From Candidatus Daviesbacteria bacterium (GTDB lineage Bacteria > Patescibacteriota > Microgenomatia > Daviesbacterales > UBA10151), in the NCBI GenBank assembly GCA_030699125.1, contig JAUYKM010000016.1, forward strand, positions 12,845 to 76,844: DNA of 64,000 nucleotides, read 5' to 3'. The position numbers and the translations under genes were made by a program. How positions within the stretch are numbered: position 1 is the first letter of the stretch; each line of letters opens with the position of its first letter. The notes under the pieces are model-generated. The model worked only from the letters and a program-made list of their open reading frames with translations, ran no database searches and was not told the origin of the DNA. Below, in pieces: positions 3,066 through 60,641 of the stretch.

Positions 3066-4346
<1,281 letters not shown>

Positions 4347-4361
4347 TAAAATACCTTCTGT

Positions 4362-4811
4362 ATGCAAAGTCATGAAAGACCAATTTTTACAGATCTTGCT
4401 AGTCAAGCATTAAATGCTCGCCCTGCTTTTCGTAATCTACCCCAAACTCTCCAACTAGAGGTAACCGACGGTGTTACTCAATTGATCACAGATTTGGATC
4501 GTATATGTAAAAGTAGTTGGAATAACGTAACCTTCTCAGGATGGAGAATCTTAGTTTTCAGTCATCCTTATGCAGGTGATACTAATTTAGCACAGTCATT
4601 AAGGCAACAAATAAAAGATTGTGGTATGCATCCCAAAACAGCTGCTGCTTTAGTCAATGGTTCTTTAAGAGACTCTGTCATGATGATCCAAAGCCATGTT
4701 ACAACCATGGAAGAGCTAAAACGTATTTTGGGAAAGTTTGAAAGAGGAAAAGCAGGGTCAGAAGGCAGAACTTTTCATAGTAATGAAGTAGGTCCTCCTG
4801 ATACTATTTGA
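4362..4811 (+). CDS. Hypothetical protein (149 aa), no recognisable family
   Basis: Intact ORF between purA and the guaA-3'-end remnant. No motif recognised. Possibly cargo of the adjacent cassette. Confidence 0.4.
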   Translation: MQSHERPIFTDLASQALNARPAFRNLPQTLQLEVTDGVTQLITDLDRICKSSWNNVTFSGWRILVFSHPYAGDTNLAQSLRQQIKDCGMHPKTAAALVNGSLRDSVMMIQSHVTTMEELKRILGKFERGKAGSEGRTFHSNEVGPPDTI

Positions 4812-4846: not shown

Positions 4847-4882
4847 TTATTCCCACTCCATAGTTGCTGGGGGTTTGGTGGT
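4847..4882. repeat. Degenerate duplicate of the guaA 3' terminus (encodes ...TTKPPATMEWE-stop on minus strand)
   Basis: 36 nt at 4847-4882 (TTATTCCCACTCCATAGTTGCTGGGGGTTTGGTGGT) match guaA's last codons plus stop at 5432-5467 (TTACTCCCATTCCATAGTTGCTGGAGGTTTAGTGGT) at 32/36 positions. The two copies flank the DUF4258/zinc-ribbon gene pair. Confidence 0.8.
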
Positions 4883-4886
4883 AAAT

Positions 4887-5120
4887 TTAGAATTGAACTA
4901 CTGGTACATCTATTCTTGTAACAGAGCTTTTTCTTTTTAAAACTTCTTGAATTCTTTGATCAATTTGATGACTAACTTTAGCATCAAAATATCTTTCTCC
5001 ACATTTAGTACAAATTAAACTAGGCACATCATTTAATGCAATCAGTTCCTTTCCCCAATATCGAGCAATATCCACATTTTCTCTTTTTAATTTTCCACCA
5101 CATTGATAGCATTTATTCAT
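4887..5120 (-). CDS. YgiT-type (MqsA-like) zinc-ribbon protein, putative antitoxin
   Basis: 77 aa; CYQCGGKLK...VPSLICTKCGERYFD. Two CxxC pairs with the spacing of YgiT/MqsA N-terminal zinc ribbons. Lies directly downstream of a DUF4258 gene. Confidence 0.65.
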   Translation of the reverse strand: MNKCYQCGGKLKRENVDIARYWGKELIALNDVPSLICTKCGERYFDAKVSHQIDQRIQEVLKRKSSVTRIDVPVVQF

Positions 5121-5123
5121 ATT

Positions 5124-5441
5124 TCACCTCTTTCTAATTGTACCACCAATCCATTCTACTTGGCTAGGTATATAATTGGTAACAATCACAGGTTTACCAA
5201 ATCTTAAACCAATTACTACGTGAACCAATCTACCATCGTTAGTTTTACCAGCAATTAGCCTACTTTCTCCTCTTGGATCATCCAGTCTTTCCTCTATTAC
5301 TCTACCAGATAACACTACTTTTTCCACCTCTTGGGCTGTTAAATTATCTTTGGTTCTTTCTTCATCAGCATGATCAGAAAATAAATAATCTTTTTTCTTT
5401 ATTCGTCTTTGAATTTCTTTAAAAGTCATTGTTACTCCCAT
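5124..5441 (-). CDS. DUF4258-family protein, putative toxin of a type II TA-like pair
   Basis: FSDHADEERTKDN...VLSGRVIEE...GESRLIAGKTNDGRLVHVVIG...PVIVTNY fits the DUF4258 pattern. The likely true start is Met at 5429 (MTFKEIQ...), 2 nt after the guaA stop. The track's longer start at 5441 overlaps guaA. Confidence 0.65.
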   Translation of the reverse strand: MGVTMTFKEIQRRIKKKDYLFSDHADEERTKDNLTAQEVEKVVLSGRVIEERLDDPRGESRLIAGKTNDGRLVHVVIGLRFGKPVIVTNYIPSQVEWIGGTIRKR

Positions 5442-6970
5442 TCCATAGTTGCTGGAGGTTTAGTGGTGATGTCATAAACTACCCTGGAAACTCCCGGGAC
5501 TTCATTGACAATTCTGGAGGAAATTTTTTGCAAAATTTCATAGGGGATTTTGGACCAAACTGTAGTCATCACATCTTTGGACTCAATAATTCTTATTGCC
5601 ATAACTTCCAAGTGAGAGCGCTCATCACCTTTGACTGCCGTACTTTTGGTATCAGTTAAAATGGCAAAACTCATATAAACTTTATCGTAAAGATTGGCTT
5701 TTGTTACTTCCTCAACCACTATTGCATCAGCCTGTTGTTGTCTTTCCAAACGCTCTTTTGTCACTTCCCCAATAATCCGAATGGCTTGTCCAGGTCCTGG
5801 AAAAACTTGCTTGGAGACTACTTCATTTGGTAACCCCAGTTTTTCCCCAATCAATCTCACTTCATCTTTATAAAAATTTCTCAAAGGTTCCAAAAGCACA
5901 AGACTCATCTCATCCGGCAATCCCCCAACATTATGATGAGATTTAATCTTATCTGCCTTTTTGGTTCCCCTACTTTCAATCACATCAGAATAAATTGTTC
6001 CCTGGGCTAAAAACTTTACTCCCTTTAACTTTTTGGCCTCTCTTTCGAATAGTTTAATATAAAGAGCACCAATGGTTTTTCTTTTTTGCTCCGGATCTGT
6101 AATATCTTTGAGGGCAGAGAGAAACTGCTTTTTGGCATCAACAATAATGGGATTTAACCTTAGATGTTTTTGGAAAATTTGTAAAACTTCCTCTTTGGTG
6201 CCAATTCTCATCAACCCGCTTTCAATATAAATAGGATATAAATTTTTACCAATGGCTTGACCAATCAAAGCTGCCGCCACTGTTGAATCCACCCCCCCGG
6301 AAACTGCACAGATAACTTTATTATTTCCCACCTTCTGTTCTATATTTTCAATAATGGCATTAACATTGATTGATTGCTTAACGATTTTTTCTCCACAAAT
6401 ATTTTGGGCAAAGTTAATAAGAATTTTTAAACCAAAGACAGTGTGCATAACTTCCGGATGGAACTGCACCCCAAAAATCTTATTTCTTAAATCTGCCACT
6501 GCTGCTGCTTTAACAGAATCTGTTTCTCCTAAATATGTAAAACCTTTGGGGATGATCACCACGCTGTCTCCGTGACTAACCCAAACAACAGAGTTATTTT
6601 CCACGCCGGAAAGAATACCCCCTTCATTTATTATGATCAGGTTGGCCGGTCCATATTCTTTATGTCCTGAAACTACTTTACCTCCCAAAAGACGGGCTGT
6701 TAGCTGCCAACCGTAACAGATTCCAAGAATTGGAATTCCCAAACTGAAAATTTTTTTATCAATCGTGGGAGCGCCTTTACTGTATACAGATGCCGGACCT
6801 CCTGAAAGAATAATTCCAGCCACTTCATCGTCATTCCCGCGAAGGCGGGAATCCATAATAAACTTAACAGCATCTTCCGGATCAACAATCTTTACCAAAA
6901 CACCATGATCCCGAAGTCTTCTTCCAATTAAATGTGCAGTTTGTGACCCAAAATCAACTAGAGTTATCAT
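5432..6970 (-). CDS. guaA: GMP synthase (glutamine-hydrolysing)
   Basis: 512 aa; GATase GICYGWQ, PP-loop VSGGVDSTV, C-terminal ...PPATMEWE. Carries an in-frame palindromic-repeat insertion encoding MDSRLRGNDDE near the N-terminus. Confidence 0.92.
   Translation of the reverse strand: MITLVDFGSQTAHLIGRRLRDHGVLVKIVDPEDAVKFIMDSRLRGNDDEVAGIILSGGPASVYSKGAPTIDKKIFSLGIPILGICYGWQLTARLLGGKVVSGHKEYGPANLIIINEGGILSGVENNSVVWVSHGDSVVIIPKGFTYLGETDSVKAAAVADLRNKIFGVQFHPEVMHTVFGLKILINFAQNICGEKIVKQSINVNAIIENIEQKVGNNKVICAVSGGVDSTVAAALIGQAIGKNLYPIYIESGLMRIGTKEEVLQIFQKHLRLNPIIVDAKKQFLSALKDITDPEQKRKTIGALYIKLFEREAKKLKGVKFLAQGTIYSDVIESRGTKKADKIKSHHNVGGLPDEMSLVLLEPLRNFYKDEVRLIGEKLGLPNEVVSKQVFPGPGQAIRIIGEVTKERLERQQQADAIVVEEVTKANLYDKVYMSFAILTDTKSTAVKGDERSHLEVMAIRIIESKDVMTTVWSKIPYEILQKISSRIVNEVPGVSRVVYDITTKPPATMEWE
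6830..6854. repeat. GC-rich palindromic hairpin element GTCATTCCCGCGAAGGCGGGAATCC inserted in-frame in guaA
   Basis: 8-bp arms (ATTCCCGC/GCGGGAAT) around a 4-nt loop. Encodes MDSRLRGNDDE at a position where E. coli GuaA has no corresponding residues. Same family as 23340-23363, 43748-43771, 59323-59397. Confidence 0.75.
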
Positions 6971-7776: not shown

Positions 7777-10385
7777 GCTTTTTGTAACCTATCTATATCA
7801 GTTGTAAACAAATTTTCAACCATCAACTTTTCATCTTTAATAGTTTTTCCTAATATTTCATAGGGAATCCCCTTAAATAATTTTTTGGCAATTTCTTCAT
7901 TTTTCACTTCAACAATAAAACATCCTGCAGTTTCACTTAGCAACTTTTTACCATCGACTTTAATCTTTACTCCACAGTTTCCTCCCACACACATTTCAAA
8001 GATTGTCGTAATTGGCCCCCCTTCACTGACATCATGACACGCTAAAACTTGTCCCTCTTTAATTGCTTTATAAATTTTTTCTAAGACTTTCGGTAAAATT
8101 TTTATATCTATATATGAAATTTCATTTTCCAGATCTTGTTTTCCAACTAATACAATTGTTGAACCAATCTTTTTAAAATCGGATGAAATTGTTTTTTTAG
8201 CATCGGGAATCCTCCCAAAAACTGAAATGCAAAGAGTAGGTGGACTATGTAGAACAAATCCATTTGATCCGCGATACGTTGCAGACAGACTATCTTTTCC
8301 GGAAATAACCGGAATTTTAAGCGCTTTCATAAAATCGCAAACAGCATCAACACATCTGTCTAATTTCCCTAACCATTCCTCATCAGGAAAAGGCCAAATA
8401 TAATTATTAATCAAGGATGCATTTTTATAATCACCCCCAACTGCAACATAGTTTGAGATTGCCTCTGATGCTGCCCAAATACTTCCCCAATATGGATCAC
8501 TCATAGTAAAAGCTGGATTAAGCCCGTGAGAAACAATCAGTCCATAAGGCTTATCTAAAATTGGTTTAATAACTGCGGCATCATTAGGTCCATCCATTCC
8601 AACTCCAGTAAATGGATGCAGGGCATTTGTCCCCTGCACATTATGGTCATACATCCTAAGTATCGGCTCTTTAGAATTTATATTCCCATGACTTAAAATC
8701 TTTTCTAAATGGTTTATCCACCCCTTTTTTGTCTTTGGTATGTTCAGGTGCGACCTTGACCAAGGTGCAACCTTAACATTGGTTGCGTGCATAACACGTT
8801 GTGGCAGTCCTCCGTACAGAAACTTCATCTCCAAATCTCCTACTTTTTCTTTTCCATAAAATACTTGTAGCCTTTTGCTGCCATCAAATTCGCCAATTTC
8901 AGTTGTCTCCACATTATATTTTTTACAGATCTTTACAAATTCTTTAAGGTTTTTTTTAGGAAGAACTATTAACATTCTTTCCTGTGATTCGGATACCCAA
9001 ATTTCCCAAGGTGACAAACCCTGATATTTGAGTGGAGCTTTTTCCAGATGAACTGTTACCCCTACTTTTTCTCCCATTTCTCCAATAGCAGAAGATAAAC
9101 CACCTGCTCCCAAATCCTGTACTGCTCTTATTAAGTCTTTATCTCTTGCCTCAAGTATGGCATCAAAAGTTCTTTTCTCCTCTATAGCATTTCCTATTTG
9201 TACGGCTGTTGCATTAACTTTAACAGTTTTCTCGCTCATGACAGCAGATGAAAATGTAGCACCATGTATCCCGTCTCTTCCTGTTTTTCCTCCAATCACA
9301 ACTGCCAGATCAGCTATTTTGGGTTTACCCTTTTCCGCTTTATTTCTTGGCAAAATCCCATATGATCCAACCAAAACTATTGGCTTGGCTCTAAAATCTT
9401 CGTGAAAATGAAATGAACCGTTATTGGAAGGGATACCGATTCTATTTCCATAATCCCTCACAGCTGCCACCACTCTTTTCAATATATAGTCCGGAGGTAG
9501 CGTGCCGGCAGGTAATTTATTTTTTGGTGTGTTTGGTGGAGCCAAACAAAAGATATCAGTTGATATTAAACATTTTGCTCCCTGGCCTGTTGCCACAATA
9601 TCTCTAAAAACTCCGCCAGATCCGGTCATGGCACCACCATATGGTTCAATAGCTGAGGGAGCATTGTGAGTTTCTGCTTTTCCATTTATTGCCAGTCCAT
9701 CATAAAAATCCATTACTCCTGAATTATCGACAAAAGCTGAAACTATATTTTTTTTGTGTTTATATGCTTCTTTTTTTATTCTCTCAATTAGCGGCATCTT
9801 ATTTTTTCCATCAACGACCAATTTGGCTTTAAAGGTTTTATGGGCACAATGCTCGCTCCAAGTTTGAGCCAAAGTTTCCAGTTCCAAATCTGTGGGATCT
9901 CTTTTTATTTTTTGAAAATAATTTTGAATTGTTTTCATCTCTTCCAAATTTAAGAAAAGCTTATCTTTTGATAATAAAAGTAGTTCCTTATCTTCCATTT
10001 CTCTTATAGGAACAACTGCAGTTTTTCCTACCCTTTCTTTTATTAGAAGTGTTGTTGGTTCTTTTTTTACAATATTTTCTATTAGTGGATTGAAAGCGGG
10101 CGCTTTATTTAAGTATTCCTTTGAGGAATCACAAGCAATAAGATTTACTTTTAAATCTCTGGCAGCTTTAATAATTGAGGCGACCTCCGGATTCATTACC
10201 CCCATCTTATAGGCAATTTCAATTACATTGAAAAAAATCGATTTATTAATAGTATAGGTTTGATTTATGTTTTCACAGAATAGTTTTTCAGCCAAAATTT
10301 TTGCCTGTTTTTCTGTTATTCCCTCCAAACGGTAAACTTTTGCTGTTGGATTTTTATTTGTTCTAACTCTAACAGTCTGAATCAT
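7743..10385 (-). CDS. purL: FGAM synthase PurL with fused N-terminal PurS-like domain (PurS-PurL fusion, glutaminase domain separate)
   Basis: 880 aa. The ~90-aa N-terminal region is PurS-like; the rest is the FGAM synthetase (AIR-synthase-related) core. About 140 aa longer than stand-alone small PurL. Confidence 0.85.
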   Translation of the reverse strand: MIQTVRVRTNKNPTAKVYRLEGITEKQAKILAEKLFCENINQTYTINKSIFFNVIEIAYKMGVMNPEVASIIKAARDLKVNLIACDSSKEYLNKAPAFNPLIENIVKKEPTTLLIKERVGKTAVVPIREMEDKELLLLSKDKLFLNLEEMKTIQNYFQKIKRDPTDLELETLAQTWSEHCAHKTFKAKLVVDGKNKMPLIERIKKEAYKHKKNIVSAFVDNSGVMDFYDGLAINGKAETHNAPSAIEPYGGAMTGSGGVFRDIVATGQGAKCLISTDIFCLAPPNTPKNKLPAGTLPPDYILKRVVAAVRDYGNRIGIPSNNGSFHFHEDFRAKPIVLVGSYGILPRNKAEKGKPKIADLAVVIGGKTGRDGIHGATFSSAVMSEKTVKVNATAVQIGNAIEEKRTFDAILEARDKDLIRAVQDLGAGGLSSAIGEMGEKVGVTVHLEKAPLKYQGLSPWEIWVSESQERMLIVLPKKNLKEFVKICKKYNVETTEIGEFDGSKRLQVFYGKEKVGDLEMKFLYGGLPQRVMHATNVKVAPWSRSHLNIPKTKKGWINHLEKILSHGNINSKEPILRMYDHNVQGTNALHPFTGVGMDGPNDAAVIKPILDKPYGLIVSHGLNPAFTMSDPYWGSIWAASEAISNYVAVGGDYKNASLINNYIWPFPDEEWLGKLDRCVDAVCDFMKALKIPVISGKDSLSATYRGSNGFVLHSPPTLCISVFGRIPDAKKTISSDFKKIGSTIVLVGKQDLENEISYIDIKILPKVLEKIYKAIKEGQVLACHDVSEGGPITTIFEMCVGGNCGVKIKVDGKKLLSETAGCFIVEVKNEEIAKKLFKGIPYEILGKTIKDEKLMVENLFTTDIDRLQKAWSRPMMEVFG

Positions 10386-23339: not shown

Positions 23340-23423
23340 GTCATTCCCGCGAAAGCGGGAATCTATATTTTATGGATCCCGCATCAAGTGCGGGATGACA
23401 GAGATCGTTGAGACGCCTCTGTC
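23340..23423. repeat. Cluster of three GC-rich hairpin repeats (GTCATTCCCGCGAAAGCGGGAATC; GGATCCCGCATCAAGTGCGGGATGAC; GACAGAG-N13-CTCTGTC) between ybaB and folD, overlapping the folD 3' end
   Basis: Perfect stems read directly. The last two units encode the folD C-terminal tail ...VTEASQRSLSSRT and span its stop codon (23384-23386). Confidence 0.75.
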
Positions 23424-46354: not shown

Positions 46355-46753
46355 CTATCTCACTCTTACTAAATTTCCATTCAGGTCTAATTCAACAAAA
46401 TGTTCAGCTCTGCCTTCTCGAAAAGCCGCGCACTGATTTTGATCTAAATCATCTATGTCCTGACGAGGCTCGTGGACCATATCCACCACCCAGTCTGGCA
46501 TCAGAGCATTTGTTAAGCAAGGTCCCTCAGAAAAATTTAGCCCTTCTTCTTTTCTTAGTTGATATAAATACCTGGCCTGATTTACGGCCGTACTAATTTC
46601 ATCTTTGGTAATATAGTCTTTTTGAAAATCTACATTAAGTATTAAGGTTAAGGCTGCCACGAGTATTACAAAGGTTAAGGTTAAGATTAAAAACACAAAT
46701 TTGGGAATTGTCTTCATCATAAACATTATCTCATCAATCCTCACACTCGACAA
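46355..46753 (-). CDS. Hypothetical membrane-anchored protein
   Basis: 132 aa; one N-terminal TM helix (FVFLILTLTFVILVAALTLIL). Confidence 0.4.
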   Translation of the reverse strand: MSSVRIDEIMFMMKTIPKFVFLILTLTFVILVAALTLILNVDFQKDYITKDEISTAVNQARYLYQLRKEEGLNFSEGPCLTNALMPDWVVDMVHEPRQDIDDLDQNQCAAFREGRAEHFVELDLNGNLVRVR

Positions 46754-47820
46754 TAGTTGCCGCTACCCAAGTTTTGGACCAGACCGAAGATCTCCATTTT
46801 CAGGAGGTTGGCAGAGATTGTGGCTGCCGACAGATTTAGCATTCTTGAAATTTCATCAATATGCAACGTTTCATTTTCCAAACATTCCAAGATTCTTTTT
46901 TCTTCTTCTGTTATTTCCCTTAATTCTTGATTCTTAATTCTTAATTCTTTCTTTAATCCCATCTCATCCAAAATCTCACCGGCATCAAAAACCGCCTTTG
47001 CCCCTGTTTTTATTAAATCTATCGGCCCTCTTGATAAACTAGAGGTAACCGGGCCAGGCACGGCAAAAACTTCCTTGCCCCCCTCAACTGCTAATCTGGC
47101 AGTGATTAATGATCCTGAATCGGAGGCTGCCTCGGTGACCAGAATTGCCTTCGATAAACCGGCGATAATTCTATTCCTGGAGGGAAAATTACCCGGGAGG
47201 GAGGGGTAAGAAGGAGGAAATTCAGACATCACTGCCCCAAAACCTTCACTGATTTTTCTGGCCAAATCACGATTTTCCGGAGGAAAAATGTTGTTTAACC
47301 CCCCTCCTAAAACTGCCAGAGTCCTGCCACGATTTTCAATGGCAGTCTGGTGTGCCATTCCATCTACGCCTCTGGCCAGACCTGATACAATTGTTAATCC
47401 GGCTGAGACCAAATCTTGAACAAATTGTTTGGTCACGGCCCGACCATAACCGGTAATCTTTCTGGTTCCCACCACCCCGATGGCATTTTCATCTTGGGGT
47501 TTAATCTCTCCTTTGTAATATAAAACAATTGGCGGATCGTAAATCTCTTTTAAAAGTCTAGGGTAGCTTTCATCATAAATGGTCAGCCATTTAATACCTG
47601 ATTTTTGGATTGAATCTGCATAAGTTTCCAGGTCTAATTTCTGACGCGTTTGAACCAACAATTCCGCCACATTTTGGGGAATCCCAATCTTTCTTATTTC
47701 CCCAATATCCGCTTCCCAAGCCAATTTTGGATCTTTAAAATAATCCAAAATTGCTTTTAGCCTAATCGGCCCCAGGCCATCGATGCTATGTAAAGCCATC
47801 AGGTATGGAATATTATTCAT
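46741..47820 (-). CDS. dprA: DNA processing protein DprA (SMF family)
   Basis: 359 aa; Rossmann-like DprA core GVVGTRKITGYGR..., GLARGVDGMAHQ, C-terminal wHTH. Confidence 0.88.
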   Translation of the reverse strand: MNNIPYLMALHSIDGLGPIRLKAILDYFKDPKLAWEADIGEIRKIGIPQNVAELLVQTRQKLDLETYADSIQKSGIKWLTIYDESYPRLLKEIYDPPIVLYYKGEIKPQDENAIGVVGTRKITGYGRAVTKQFVQDLVSAGLTIVSGLARGVDGMAHQTAIENRGRTLAVLGGGLNNIFPPENRDLARKISEGFGAVMSEFPPSYPSLPGNFPSRNRIIAGLSKAILVTEAASDSGSLITARLAVEGGKEVFAVPGPVTSSLSRGPIDLIKTGAKAVFDAGEILDEMGLKKELRIKNQELREITEEEKRILECLENETLHIDEISRMLNLSAATISANLLKMEIFGLVQNLGSGNYCRV

Positions 47821-58595: not shown

Positions 58596-60641
58596 ATGCT
58601 TGAGAGAATTATTCCTTACTGCTTTTATGTCCTATTTTTTCTGACCCCTCTTTTTTGGACTTCGAAAAATTATGAACTTTTTGAGTTTAATAAAATGCTT
58701 TTGGTTTATAGTTTTACGGTAATAATTGTGGGTGTATGGATTCTCAAAATGATCCAGCAAAAATCCTTTATTTTTAAAAGAACTCCCCTGGATCTTCCTC
58801 TGCTTTTATTTTTATTAGCGAACATTTTAGCAACTATTTTTTCCATTGATAAACATGTCTCAATTTGGGGCTATTATTCCAGATTAAACGGCGGACTCAT
58901 ATCCATCATTTCCTACCTATTATTATACTGGGCCTATTGTTCCAATTTTGATGGCAAAAATATCAAAAAATTATTTTATTTTGCTTTTGCCTCCGGTACC
59001 ATCATTTCCCTCTGGGGAATTTTGGAGCATTTTGGTGTCTCCCCTTCCTGTATTATTTTAAGAGGAGAACTCAATGCCTCCTGTTGGGTGCAAGATGTTC
59101 AAGCAAGAGTTTTTGCCACCTTAGGTCAACCCAATTGGATGGCTGGATATTTAGCCATGCTAATCTTCCCTGCTCTGTACTTTTTGCTCACTGCCAAAAC
59201 TAAGGTTCAACAAGTTAGCAGTTACTTGTTACTTGTTACTTTCTATCTGGCTTTCACCTTCACCTACTCCCGGGGTCCCACATTGGGTCTGATTGGAGGA
59301 TTTATTGTTTTTATTCTACTGTCATCCCCGCGTAGGCGGGGATCCAATTCCGAATCTAGCTACTTTAATTGGATTCCTGCATTCGCAGGAATGACAAAAG
59401 GGATAATAGTTATTTTGTTATCCTTTCTAGCCATAAATCTCCTTTTTGGTTCTGCCCTCACAAACTTCAAATTGGTCTCCCAGTTTGCAGCACCCACAAG
59501 ACCCACTATCTCTTTACCACCATCTTCCGTAACTCAGCTGGAACAAGGAGGCACAGAATCAGGACAAATTAGATTTATTGTCTGGCGGGGAGCTTTGGAT
59601 ATTTTCCGCCATTACCCCATCTTTGGCTCAGGATTAGAAACCTTTGCCTATGCTTACTACCAGTTTAGACCGGTTGAGCATAACCTAACTTCGGAGTGGG
59701 ATTTTCTTTATAACAAAGCTCATAATGAGTATTTAAATTACTTGGCTACTACTGGTTTAATAGGATTTTTGACTTACATGGGAGTAATCGGAACTTTTGT
59801 AATATGGTGTGTTAAGGGAATAATGAATAAAGAATTAAGAATTAAGCTTAATTCATCATTCTTAATTCTTACCGCTCTATTTGCCTCCTACATCTCCTAC
59901 CTAATTTACAACTTCTTCCTTTTTTCCGTTGTCATTATTGCTCTCTTTTTCTATATTTTTCCTGCCATTGCTTTTGTGGCAACTGATTCCACAAAACAAC
60001 TGAAGTTTCCAAAAAAACTTTTCACTTCTTTTATATACCGTCGTCCTGCCTATACAAAAGCAACTCAAGTTATTATTGTCGTTTCCATCTTCTATCTTCT
60101 ATTCTCCATCTTCCAACTTTGGTATACAGATACCTTATTTGCCCAAGGACAAAGAGCCTCTGATGCCGGCAATCCTGGTAGGGCATATAATCTTCTCACC
60201 ACTGCTCATGAGATAAGAGGTGATGAGCCTTTTTATCAATCTGAACTTAGCCTTGCTGCTGCTTCGGCTGCCGTGGCTTTAGCCGAAATAGGTGATGCTT
60301 CCTCCTCAGCCACATTAAAAAATGAAGCTATTTCTACTATTGAACATGTTCTAAAAAACAATCCTAATAATGTCTCATATATGCGAGCTGGTATTAGAAC
60401 CTATTTTGAGCTCTCAAGCATAGATGAAAGTTTTATTGATGATACACTTACGGTCATCGACCAGGCGATTCAGCTTGCTCCCACTGATCCAAAGCTTTAT
60501 TACAATAAGGCCTTGATCTTACAGCTGAATGGAAAGGATGCAGAGGCCATTGAGACTTTACAGAAAGCCATTGAGCTTAAACCAAATTATGTCCAGGCTA
60601 TTGATCAACTAAATGAAGCCACTGCCTCAGCCAGACCATGA
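58596..60641 (+). CDS. O-antigen-ligase-like (Wzy_C) polytopic membrane protein with C-terminal TPR repeats
   Basis: 681 aa, about 12 TM; YNKAHNEYLNYLATTGLIGF (O-antigen ligase motif); C-terminal TPR-like NPNNVSYMRAG...YYNKALILQLNGKDAEAIETLQKAIELKPNY. Two in-frame palindromic repeats at 59323-59397. Confidence 0.75.
   Translation: MLERIIPYCFYVLFFLTPLFWTSKNYELFEFNKMLLVYSFTVIIVGVWILKMIQQKSFIFKRTPLDLPLLLFLLANILATIFSIDKHVSIWGYYSRLNGGLISIISYLLLYWAYCSNFDGKNIKKLFYFAFASGTIISLWGILEHFGVSPSCIILRGELNASCWVQDVQARVFATLGQPNWMAGYLAMLIFPALYFLLTAKTKVQQVSSYLLLVTFYLAFTFTYSRGPTLGLIGGFIVFILLSSPRRRGSNSESSYFNWIPAFAGMTKGIIVILLSFLAINLLFGSALTNFKLVSQFAAPTRPTISLPPSSVTQLEQGGTESGQIRFIVWRGALDIFRHYPIFGSGLETFAYAYYQFRPVEHNLTSEWDFLYNKAHNEYLNYLATTGLIGFLTYMGVIGTFVIWCVKGIMNKELRIKLNSSFLILTALFASYISYLIYNFFLFSVVIIALFFYIFPAIAFVATDSTKQLKFPKKLFTSFIYRRPAYTKATQVIIVVSIFYLLFSIFQLWYTDTLFAQGQRASDAGNPGRAYNLLTTAHEIRGDEPFYQSELSLAAASAAVALAEIGDASSSATLKNEAISTIEHVLKNNPNNVSYMRAGIRTYFELSSIDESFIDDTLTVIDQAIQLAPTDPKLYYNKALILQLNGKDAEAIETLQKAIELKPNYVQAIDQLNEATASARP
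59323..59397. repeat. Two palindromic hairpin elements (GTCATCCCCGCGTAGGCGGGGATCC and GGATTCCTGCATTCGCAGGAATGAC) inserted in-frame in the O-antigen-ligase-like gene
   Basis: Perfect 8-9 bp arms. Encode SSPRRRGSNSESSYFNWIPAFAGMTKG within a loop region. Confidence 0.75.

Follow-up and report, generated by a model that had tools for sequence, protein, structure and literature searches.

The 64-kb stretch of Candidatus Daviesbacteria DNA analysed here (the window) carries, at the stop codon of guaA, a short segment (4883-5431) that is, as judged by sequence comparison, a promoter-less two-gene putative toxin-antitoxin (TA) cassette, placed between guaA and the convergent purA gene and bracketed by two copies of the guaA 3′ terminus. 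The relatives examined indicate that it is one of a population of cassettes without a recombinase, mostly TA pairs but also Trp-repressor-like and DUF6899 genes, at the 3′ ends of conserved genes. The explanation that we favour, with a confidence just short of an even chance, is that recombination within the duplicated termini accounts for the gain, exchange and loss of such cassettes, and that this would require neither an integrase encoded by the element nor one specific for the target. Positions given below are those of the window, except where a locus label (L001 and so on, each for a contig of a relative) is used.

The proximal copy of the terminus (5432-5467, TTACTCCCATTCCATAGTTGCTGGAGGTTTAGTGGT) and the distal copy (4847-4882, TTATTCCCACTCCATAGTTGCTGGGGGTTTGGTGGT) form a direct repeat with 32 of 36 identical positions and 585 nt from start to start. 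Either copy translates on the minus strand as TTKPPATMEWE*, and all four mismatches are synonymous changes in third codon positions (ACT/ACC, CCT/CCC, GAA/GAG and GAG/GAA). Direct comparison bore out an earlier note made from the sequence alone, which had reported this recurrence in the same orientation and exactly two small genes between the copies, spaced by 2 and 4 nt. The ATG of the DUF4258 gene (5429) lies 2 nt past the guaA stop, with an alternative ATG at 5441 that overlaps guaA, the DUF4258 and zinc-ribbon genes are on the same strand and 3 nt apart, and the zinc-ribbon stop is 4 nt ahead of the distal copy. No further copy of the 36-mer with at least 24 of 36 matching positions was present on either strand of the whole window. 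Matches with three or fewer mismatches were obtained in none of 100 shuffles, and two scans for the last 30-33 nt of an open reading frame (ORF) recurring downstream gave 10 and 21 matches (the latter in a blind scan run over all the locus sequences collected), compared to none in each of the reversed and inverted controls; a chance repeat was ruled out by these shuffles and controls. As the similarity ends at 36-38 nt, beside the zinc-ribbon stop, and does not extend upstream of the distal copy, this copy is not the end of a degraded guaA paralogue, an alternative that the earlier note had itself raised.

An exact look-up of the guaA protein of the window matched no record, and its identity to proteins from metagenome-assembled genomes (MAGs) of Microgenomates, within the Candidate Phyla Radiation (CPR), was 83% for L001, 74% for L002 and 45-63% for the others. 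The gene order purQ-like, guaA, convergent purA and then an ATP-grasp gene was common to a clade of 22 genomes. Nine syntenic genomes had an empty site (L031, L032, L035, L038, L041, L042, L052, L059 and L067), with a single terminus and the guaA stop 2-20 nt from the purA stop. When the filled locus L051 was aligned with the empty L052, its neighbour in the host tree, the sequence up to 7533 matched that up to 7533 and the sequence from 8086 matched that from 7499. The single L052 terminus thus matches both L051 copies, so that the segment 4883-5431 plus one terminus copy is an insertion. The alignment of related guaA-purA loci that the earlier note had recommended therefore yielded both empty and filled sites, and its proposal of an insertion at the guaA 3′ end that brings a replacement terminus proved to be right. 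When the same two loci were compared to find which terminus copy was derived from the host, the pattern was chimeric and uninformative. Filled and empty genomes were interspersed in the host tree. The guaA-purA gap was also filled without a terminus duplicate in L033, L039/L055, L049, L058, L062, L048 and L101; in L101 the TA pair was present and the distal copy absent. The insert in L048 (7569-11334, 3.7 kb) contained ORFs resembling a transposase (302 aa) and a reverse transcriptase (355 aa), both named by eye from their translations.

Duplicated guaA termini were found on 11 distinct contigs with variable cargo. The DUF4258 and zinc-ribbon pair, with a spacing of 585-588 nt between termini, was present in the window, L092, L043, L051, L081 and L103, and a derivative from which the toxin gene had been deleted except for its last ~40 nt was present in L027 (the same as L082). 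In L083 the contig is cut at the zinc-ribbon gene and a DUF6899 cassette follows. Other cargo comprised a Trp_repressor-like gene (L001, L019 and L103), MazE plus PIN (L001), Phd plus PIN (L103) and a bare 39-nt hairpin segment (L017). With three and four termini, respectively, L001 and L103 are cassette arrays. The array of L103 (1550-4086) has termini ending at 1550, 2314, 3498 and 4086, which delimit Phd plus PIN, then a HAD gene on the minus strand with the Trp-repressor-like gene, and then DUF4258 plus zinc ribbon; its third terminus is degenerate in the left half only and its fourth is perfect. In L092 and L001, which are sisters in the purA plus orf338 tree, the cargo differs exactly between the guaA stop and purA.

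Some of these cassettes showed additional features. Those with the Trp-repressor-like gene shared a conserved palindrome, TTATTCGAATAA, within a promoter-like stretch with TTGACA (L103 2890-2935, 3396-3420 and 4140-4185; L001 8055-8079; L019 8040-8064), with a further copy beyond the last L103 terminus, and the palindrome is probably an autoregulatory operator. In L017 (7524-7593), the 39-nt spacer between the two termini holds a perfect 8-bp GC hairpin (CCCGCACC GCCT GGTGCGGG), and all seven differences between these termini are synonymous. In L001, the last codons of a 223-aa ORF (8891-9562, minus strand) run antisense through the third guaA terminus, which has therefore been absorbed into a neighbouring reading frame.

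The same kind of arrangement was detected at other genes. Duplicated dnaJ ends, with repeats of 22 to >100 nt, surrounded the DUF4258/zinc-ribbon cassette in L084 (the same as L086), L085, L091, L093 and L102, and duplicated uvrB ends of 74-85 nt were found in L097 and L099, where the cassette runs antisense to uvrB and uvrA directly adjoins the distal copy. In L089 the end of a 638-aa ORF is present three times, around a Gp49/HTH/zinc-ribbon cassette (HTH, helix-turn-helix) and a RelB/YafQ cassette, and a 346-aa ORF lies between duplicated ends of another gene in L036. Across targets the repeat length ranged from 22 to 113 nt. At guaA the left boundary of the repeat was set at 30, 34-38, ~40, ~45 or 113 nt, and the right boundary was always at the cassette start. 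In every context the cassette was tight around its ORFs, with its ends 2-7 nt ahead of the start codon and 3-8 nt past the stop. The L102 contig also carries NTP_transf_2/HepT and HicB/HicA pairs between dnaK and dnaJ, in a region (522-2529) where no duplicate of the dnaK end was detected, in addition to the DUF4258 cassette after dnaJ.

The copies of each terminus differed mainly at synonymous positions, and the earlier note had not remarked that the four mismatches in the window are all of this kind. The guaA repeat pairs showed 38 synonymous versus 6 non-synonymous differences, for an expected neutral synonymous fraction of 0.20-0.24 (P < 1e-8), an excess that has P ~1e-8 even when full selection on one copy is allowed for. 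The non-guaA targets gave 32 versus 13, including 9 out of 9 at the uvrB gene of L097 (12% divergence), and the pooled differences (70:19) were ~80% synonymous. Because of this bias, the copies can be regarded as the ends of two functional alleles instead of the outcome of a target duplication in situ; they look like termini derived from a donor and a recipient allele, or like a terminus repeatedly reused as a real gene end.

Comparison of close loci located the breakpoints of exchange. The window and L092, the toxins of which are 96% identical, were 84% collinear beginning at purQ and ending with the final base of the distal copy, unrelated past it, where a DUF6899 gene takes in this closest relative the position of a 149-aa ORF of the window, and then only 75% identical from purA on. 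The guaA genes of the window, L092 and L001 grouped with those of non-syntenic Microgenomates and not with the Daviesbacteria-type guaA of their syntenic relatives, the window gene being only ~55% identical to the latter, compared to 70-83% for purA and the ATP-grasp gene in the same genomes. On these groupings, the guaA gene of the three loci is xenologous to its flanks. In L001 both distal termini are of the Daviesbacteria TNK type and the gene's own terminus is of the TTK type. In L083 a 25-nt fragment of the purA end adjoins a 113-nt fragment of a guaA end (94% identical to guaA of L027), a compound junction of the kind that off-register recombination between two alleles of this locus would be expected to leave. 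Finally, the Pro-Ala codons changed in parallel in both copies between the window and L092 (CCA GCA vs. CCT GCC), and the GAA/GAG difference between copies was kept in both genomes alike, which implies short-patch exchange between the copies after insertion.

The profile searches that the earlier note had suggested for both cassette proteins gave matches above the cut-offs, to PF14076 for DUF4258 (E 1.3e-16, 61 bits for a cut-off of 25) and to the YgiT finger TIGR03831 for the zinc-ribbon protein (43.4 bits for a cut-off of 20.2). The full MqsA models scored below their cut-offs on this protein (TIGR03830, 26 vs. 61.8; PF15731, 22 vs. 30), as did the Pfam match to YokU. The 77-aa protein is without the HTH domain that in MqsA-type antitoxins follows the zinc ribbon at the C-terminus, and the pair does not appear to qualify as a member of the MqsRA family. 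The AlphaFold model of the DUF4258 protein (mean confidence, pLDDT, of 87) had its best fold matches in the Protein Data Bank (PDB) with BrnT (3u97, TM 0.53/0.66), HigB2, HP0892 and YafQ, all with weak E values of 0.03-1, and sequence searches of the PDB with both cassette proteins gave nothing significant. The pair was kept, as small adjacent co-directional genes with a tight junction, in 12 of the 14 loci where both positions were readable; in L087 and L089 the zinc-ribbon gene had no DUF4258 gene upstream. From these profiles and the predicted fold, it seems reasonable to name the pair TA-like, with DUF4258 as putative toxin and the zinc-ribbon protein as putative antitoxin. As in the type II systems BrnT/BrnA, HigBA and MqsRA, both genes are small, they overlap or abut and the putative toxin gene comes first, and the toxin model may share a RelE/BrnT-like fold with BrnT and HigB. 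The partner has in common with MqsRA a YgiT/MqsA-type zinc ribbon, but it is shorter and lacks the HTH of MqsA, and the DUF4258 protein has no detectable sequence similarity to any TA toxin of solved structure.

Regarding expression, a GGGAG motif at 5435-5439 sits 5 nt upstream of the DUF4258 ATG, within the last codons of guaA, and may serve as its Shine-Dalgarno sequence; the same arrangement was found in L043 and L051, and GGGAA takes its place in L081 and in the third terminus of L103. No terminator-like site was found between 4200 and 5800, and promoter-like sites were no commoner there than in shuffles. The cassette is thus probably expressed by read-through from guaA, which the earlier note had also put forward and which is made plausible by the 2-nt gap, the GGGAG motif 5 nt before the ATG and the lack of a terminator-like site in that region.

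No recombinase was encoded in the 585 bp between the repeats of the window, in agreement with the earlier note, nor between those of any locus. Searches by phmmer with single-sequence XerD and resolvase queries, which are of limited sensitivity, detected no tyrosine or serine recombinase in the window or in ~100 loci, and a Pfam scan of 20 window ORFs (240-681 aa) returned no integrase, all of them being housekeeping genes except one without a match. Likewise, no integrase was found beside guaA in the 11 guaA-repeat loci or in 80 guaA neighbourhoods, and no integrase-bearing element occupied the same attachment (att) site in the 80 guaA loci or in 23 cassette loci, a search that covered the loci and not whole genomes. 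Neither an Rfam nor a tRNA scan of the window gave a match, which leaves no tRNA or tmRNA to serve as an att site. A phage or viral origin was ruled out, as neither the terminus pattern nor the DUF4258 protein had a match in IMG/VR, and an attC-like hairpin or a terminator within the repeat was also rejected, as the repeat folded no better than shuffles on either strand (z-scores +0.7 to +1.1).

If recombination within duplicated termini is responsible for these arrangements, donor DNA would be acquired from relatives, and the first duplication at a new target would take two events, a homologous exchange anchored in the conserved gene and an illegitimate join located within the end of the recipient gene. 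Homology-facilitated illegitimate recombination is documented as a one-sided process (PMC3240628). The presence of dprA in the window and the lack of significant secondary structure in the repeat are in keeping with this model. The geometry of the duplication could be provided by a circle (Campbell integration) or by a template switch. The 36-nt repeat is the insertion junction, with a copy of the last ~36 nt of the target accompanying the cassette, because of which guaA stays intact via the proximal copy and the second copy is left on the far side. Only duplicating joins would survive, since joins farther downstream would cut the abutting neighbour in such compact genomes. After the first duplication, ordinary recombination between terminus copies would be enough for transfer, stacking and excision, and the enrichment of TA pairs among repeat-flanked cassettes could be explained because addictive cargo resists excision. 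Expression would take place by read-through and translational coupling from guaA. In this scheme we infer the enzymes, the route of DNA entry, the toxicity and the expression.

Several points weigh against host recombination as the mechanism. A 36-nt repeat with four mismatches is a poor substrate for RecA, and a complex geometry with two chromatids, template switching or a circle is needed because single-strand replacement in transformation yields no duplication. Neither an enzyme nor an intermediate for cassette movement was identified at the examined loci, and the recombinase screen covered only DNA near the loci, with single-sequence queries. For several types of cargo the guaA repeats are concentrated at lengths of 34-45 nt, and the equally tight cassette ends at three targets are a hint of a defined mobile unit, as opposed to joins made at random. 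The cassette trees could also be explained by only a few ancient insertions with subsequent vertical descent and loss. Furthermore, tyrosine integrases have been proven elsewhere to use the guaA 3′ end, with its core GAGTGGGA, as an att site.

A more far-reaching reading, which seems possible but rather doubtful, is that of an integron-like cassette economy without an integron in Microgenomates, in which the conserved last 20-110 nt of housekeeping genes would act as portable attachment sequences that accompany small cassettes, TA pairs for the most part. Either host recombination or an unrecognised recombinase would insert, stack, swap and excise the cassettes, and those co-directional with the target would be expressed by read-through.

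The main rival to host recombination, and a weaker one, is a guaA-specific integrase acting in trans: an element with a surrogate terminus and a tyrosine integrase would have lost this and other genes, as in a cis-mobilisable element (CIME), or would be moved by an integrase supplied from elsewhere. Such an origin is unlikely, despite the facts that tyrosine integrases in several phyla are well known to use the guaA 3′ end as att site (ATE-1, the IncP island and GIsul2), that the GIsul2 core lies inside the distal copy, that the GIsul2 integrase mobilises an integrase-less sub-unit via an internal att copy, that the tandem arrays of L001 and L103 match CIME accretion and that a terminus borne by the element under coding constraint would fit synonymous-only differences. 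No integrase was found in or beside the guaA loci or among the window ORFs examined, the dnaJ and uvrB brackets of the same cassette would demand several different integrases, the guaA repeat ranges from 30 to 113 nt, and neither the terminus pattern nor the toxin was present on any viral contig. The earlier note had left the choice between a decayed integrative element and an unknown mode of mobilisation for TA cassettes. A decayed guaA-specific element is unlikely to be the whole story because dnaJ and uvrB termini also flank this cassette, with repeats of 22-113 nt and no integrase found next to ~100 loci, and the mobilisation mode can be maintained as a possibility only. An inert scar of one old guaA insertion, inherited vertically with repeated loss and no mobility, is quite unlikely. 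The identities of the cassette proteins (68-82%) do resemble those of purA and orf338 (70-81%), and the guaA-associated cassettes largely group together in trees that are too short to resolve the number of insertion events; however, filled and empty genomes are interspersed, sister genomes have different cargo, homology breaks exactly at the termini, the distal copies retain their coding signature without decay, and both copies have changed in parallel between the window and L092.

Somewhat less probable still is an unknown transposition-like or replicative process that duplicates 20-110 nt of the target in situ, for which staggered cuts, the long variable repeats of IS1634-type elements, Cas1-like integration and double template switching are possible analogues. 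IS1634 and IS1549 create long direct repeats of variable length, and the variable repeats found here, the lack of any sequence in common among the guaA, dnaJ and uvrB repeats and the identical, ORF-tight cassette ends at three targets and in both orientations would fit such a process. Freshly made copies would nevertheless be identical and the distal one would drift neutrally, contrary to the synonymous bias described above. In addition, no terminal inverted repeats were apparent at the inspected cassette ends, no transposase was nearby, and the cassette ends fall in coding sequence. Chance, an artefact of metagenome assembly or the template/variable repeat pair of a diversity-generating retroelement (DGR) is hardly credible as an explanation. 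The window does come from a MAG and CPR genomes are rich in DGRs, but the controls gave no matches, and the same junctions, diverged in sequence, were present in more than 10 independent assemblies. A DGR pair was rejected, as the mismatches, T/C and A/G changes in third codon positions, are not specific for adenine and no reverse transcriptase is adjacent.

The features of the guaA-purA region are listed in Table 1.

Table 1. Features of the guaA-purA region of the window.
Feature	Position	Strand	Basis
guaA (GMP synthase, 512 aa), target gene, intact	5432..6970	-	Pfam GATase E 3e-39, GMP_synt_C E 4.5e-35
Proximal guaA terminus, functional last 11 codons plus stop (TTKPPATMEWE*)	5432..5467	-	Sequence comparison
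GGGAG, Shine-Dalgarno-like, within the last codons of guaA	5435..5439	-	Read from sequence
DUF4258 gene, putative RNase toxin, 101 aa (105 aa from the 5441 start)	5124..5429	-	PF14076
YgiT-type zinc-ribbon gene, putative antitoxin, 77 aa	4887..5120	-	TIGR03831
Distal guaA terminus, 32/36, synonymous changes only, contains GAGTGGGA	4847..4882	-	Sequence comparison
149-aa lineage-specific ORF, between the distal copy and purA	4362..4811	+	ORF call
purA (adenylosuccinate synthase), convergent neighbour, abuts guaA in empty sites	3078..4346	+	Adenylsucc_synt found in purA of L092

The 149-aa ORF had no match in Pfam or NCBIfam and no relative by tblastn in any locus, and a duplication of the purA terminus around it was looked for and not found. 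A 24-nt GC-rich palindrome, GTCATTCCCGCGAAGGCGGGAATC, was observed inside guaA at 6824-6853, within a stretch (MDSRLRGNDDEVAG) that makes the protein 7 aa longer than those of L092 and L001 (512 vs. 505 aa). Near-identical copies were located at ~23340-23365 and ~59320-59345, one of them intergenic and the other inside a 681-aa Wzy_C/TPR ORF (58596-60641). The palindrome has the appearance of a small dispersed element whose in-frame insertion is tolerated. Elsewhere in the window (46741-47820, minus strand) lies dprA, with the domains DNA_processg_A and DprA_WH, which encodes the mediator that loads RecA on transforming DNA; its presence is consistent with natural competence.

The locus and its relatives provide natural examples of TA cassettes that fit closely around their ORFs, for which empty and filled sites are precisely defined and the junctions readable at several targets, and give a testable lead on the movement of minimal chromosomal TA modules, the integration and persistence of which remain unclear according to a 2026 study on Photorhabdus. 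If true, the integron-like economy would represent a general and so far undescribed route for the movement of such modules. The arrangement also bears on how ultra-compact CPR genomes, with convergent genes 2-20 nt apart, accept genes without breaking their neighbours. For annotation, the short guaA, dnaJ and uvrB pseudo-termini past the cassettes would be junction scars and not pseudogenes, and for phylogeny it would matter that guaA itself is exchanged along with the cassettes at this hot spot. A literature search yielded no earlier account of TA cassettes that lie between duplicated gene termini, or of recombinase-less cassette arrays at duplicated housekeeping-gene ends in CPR. The repeats of a case in Microcystis (PMC7935541) are intergenic and of 152 bp, unlike the duplicated gene termini found here.

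Among known systems, the closest in position are GIsul2, ATE-1 and the IncP island, elements of 10-15 kb or larger with a tyrosine integrase next to attL and one fixed att site. They share with the loci described here the insertion at the 3′ end of guaA, direct repeats spanning the E-W-E codons (core GAGTGGGA) and the preservation of an intact guaA, and att copies delimit the integrase-less CR2-sul2 unit as terminus copies delimit the units here. In contrast, the units found in this work are of 0.3-1 kb, have no nearby integrase that could be found, show a variable repeat and carry the same cargo at dnaJ and uvrB ends. Of the features that define integrative elements, terminus repeats and empty sites were thus found at guaA, and an integrase encoded at the element end and one fixed att site were not. 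CIMEs and accretion arrays of streptococci are also similar in their loss of integration genes, their flanks (attL and attR) derived from the target and their tandem arrays, but they occur together with related integrative and conjugative or integrative and mobilisable elements that bear an integrase at the same site, a partner that was not found in the 80 guaA loci.

Integron cassettes, including those in clusters of attC sites lacking integron integrases (CALINs), resemble the present cassettes in being small, mostly promoter-less, often TA pairs and arrayed, in each ending in a repeat, and in being mostly co-directional with an upstream gene whose transcription could serve them. They differ in that no IntI was present here, where no tyrosine-recombinase homologue was detected, in that the repeat is the coding end of a host gene and not a folded imperfect palindrome, and in that the orientation of the cassette can be reversed, as at uvrB. 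The orphan toxin/immunity arrays downstream of rhs and cdiA genes are composed of successive modules that each carry a repeated fragment of the 3′ region of the upstream gene; they probably form when homologous recombination pushes older modules farther downstream, with no dedicated recombinase involved. The repeat of those arrays continues in frame into a new toxin domain, whereas at the loci described here it ends with the host stop codon and a separate cytoplasmic TA pair is carried as cargo beside a housekeeping gene.

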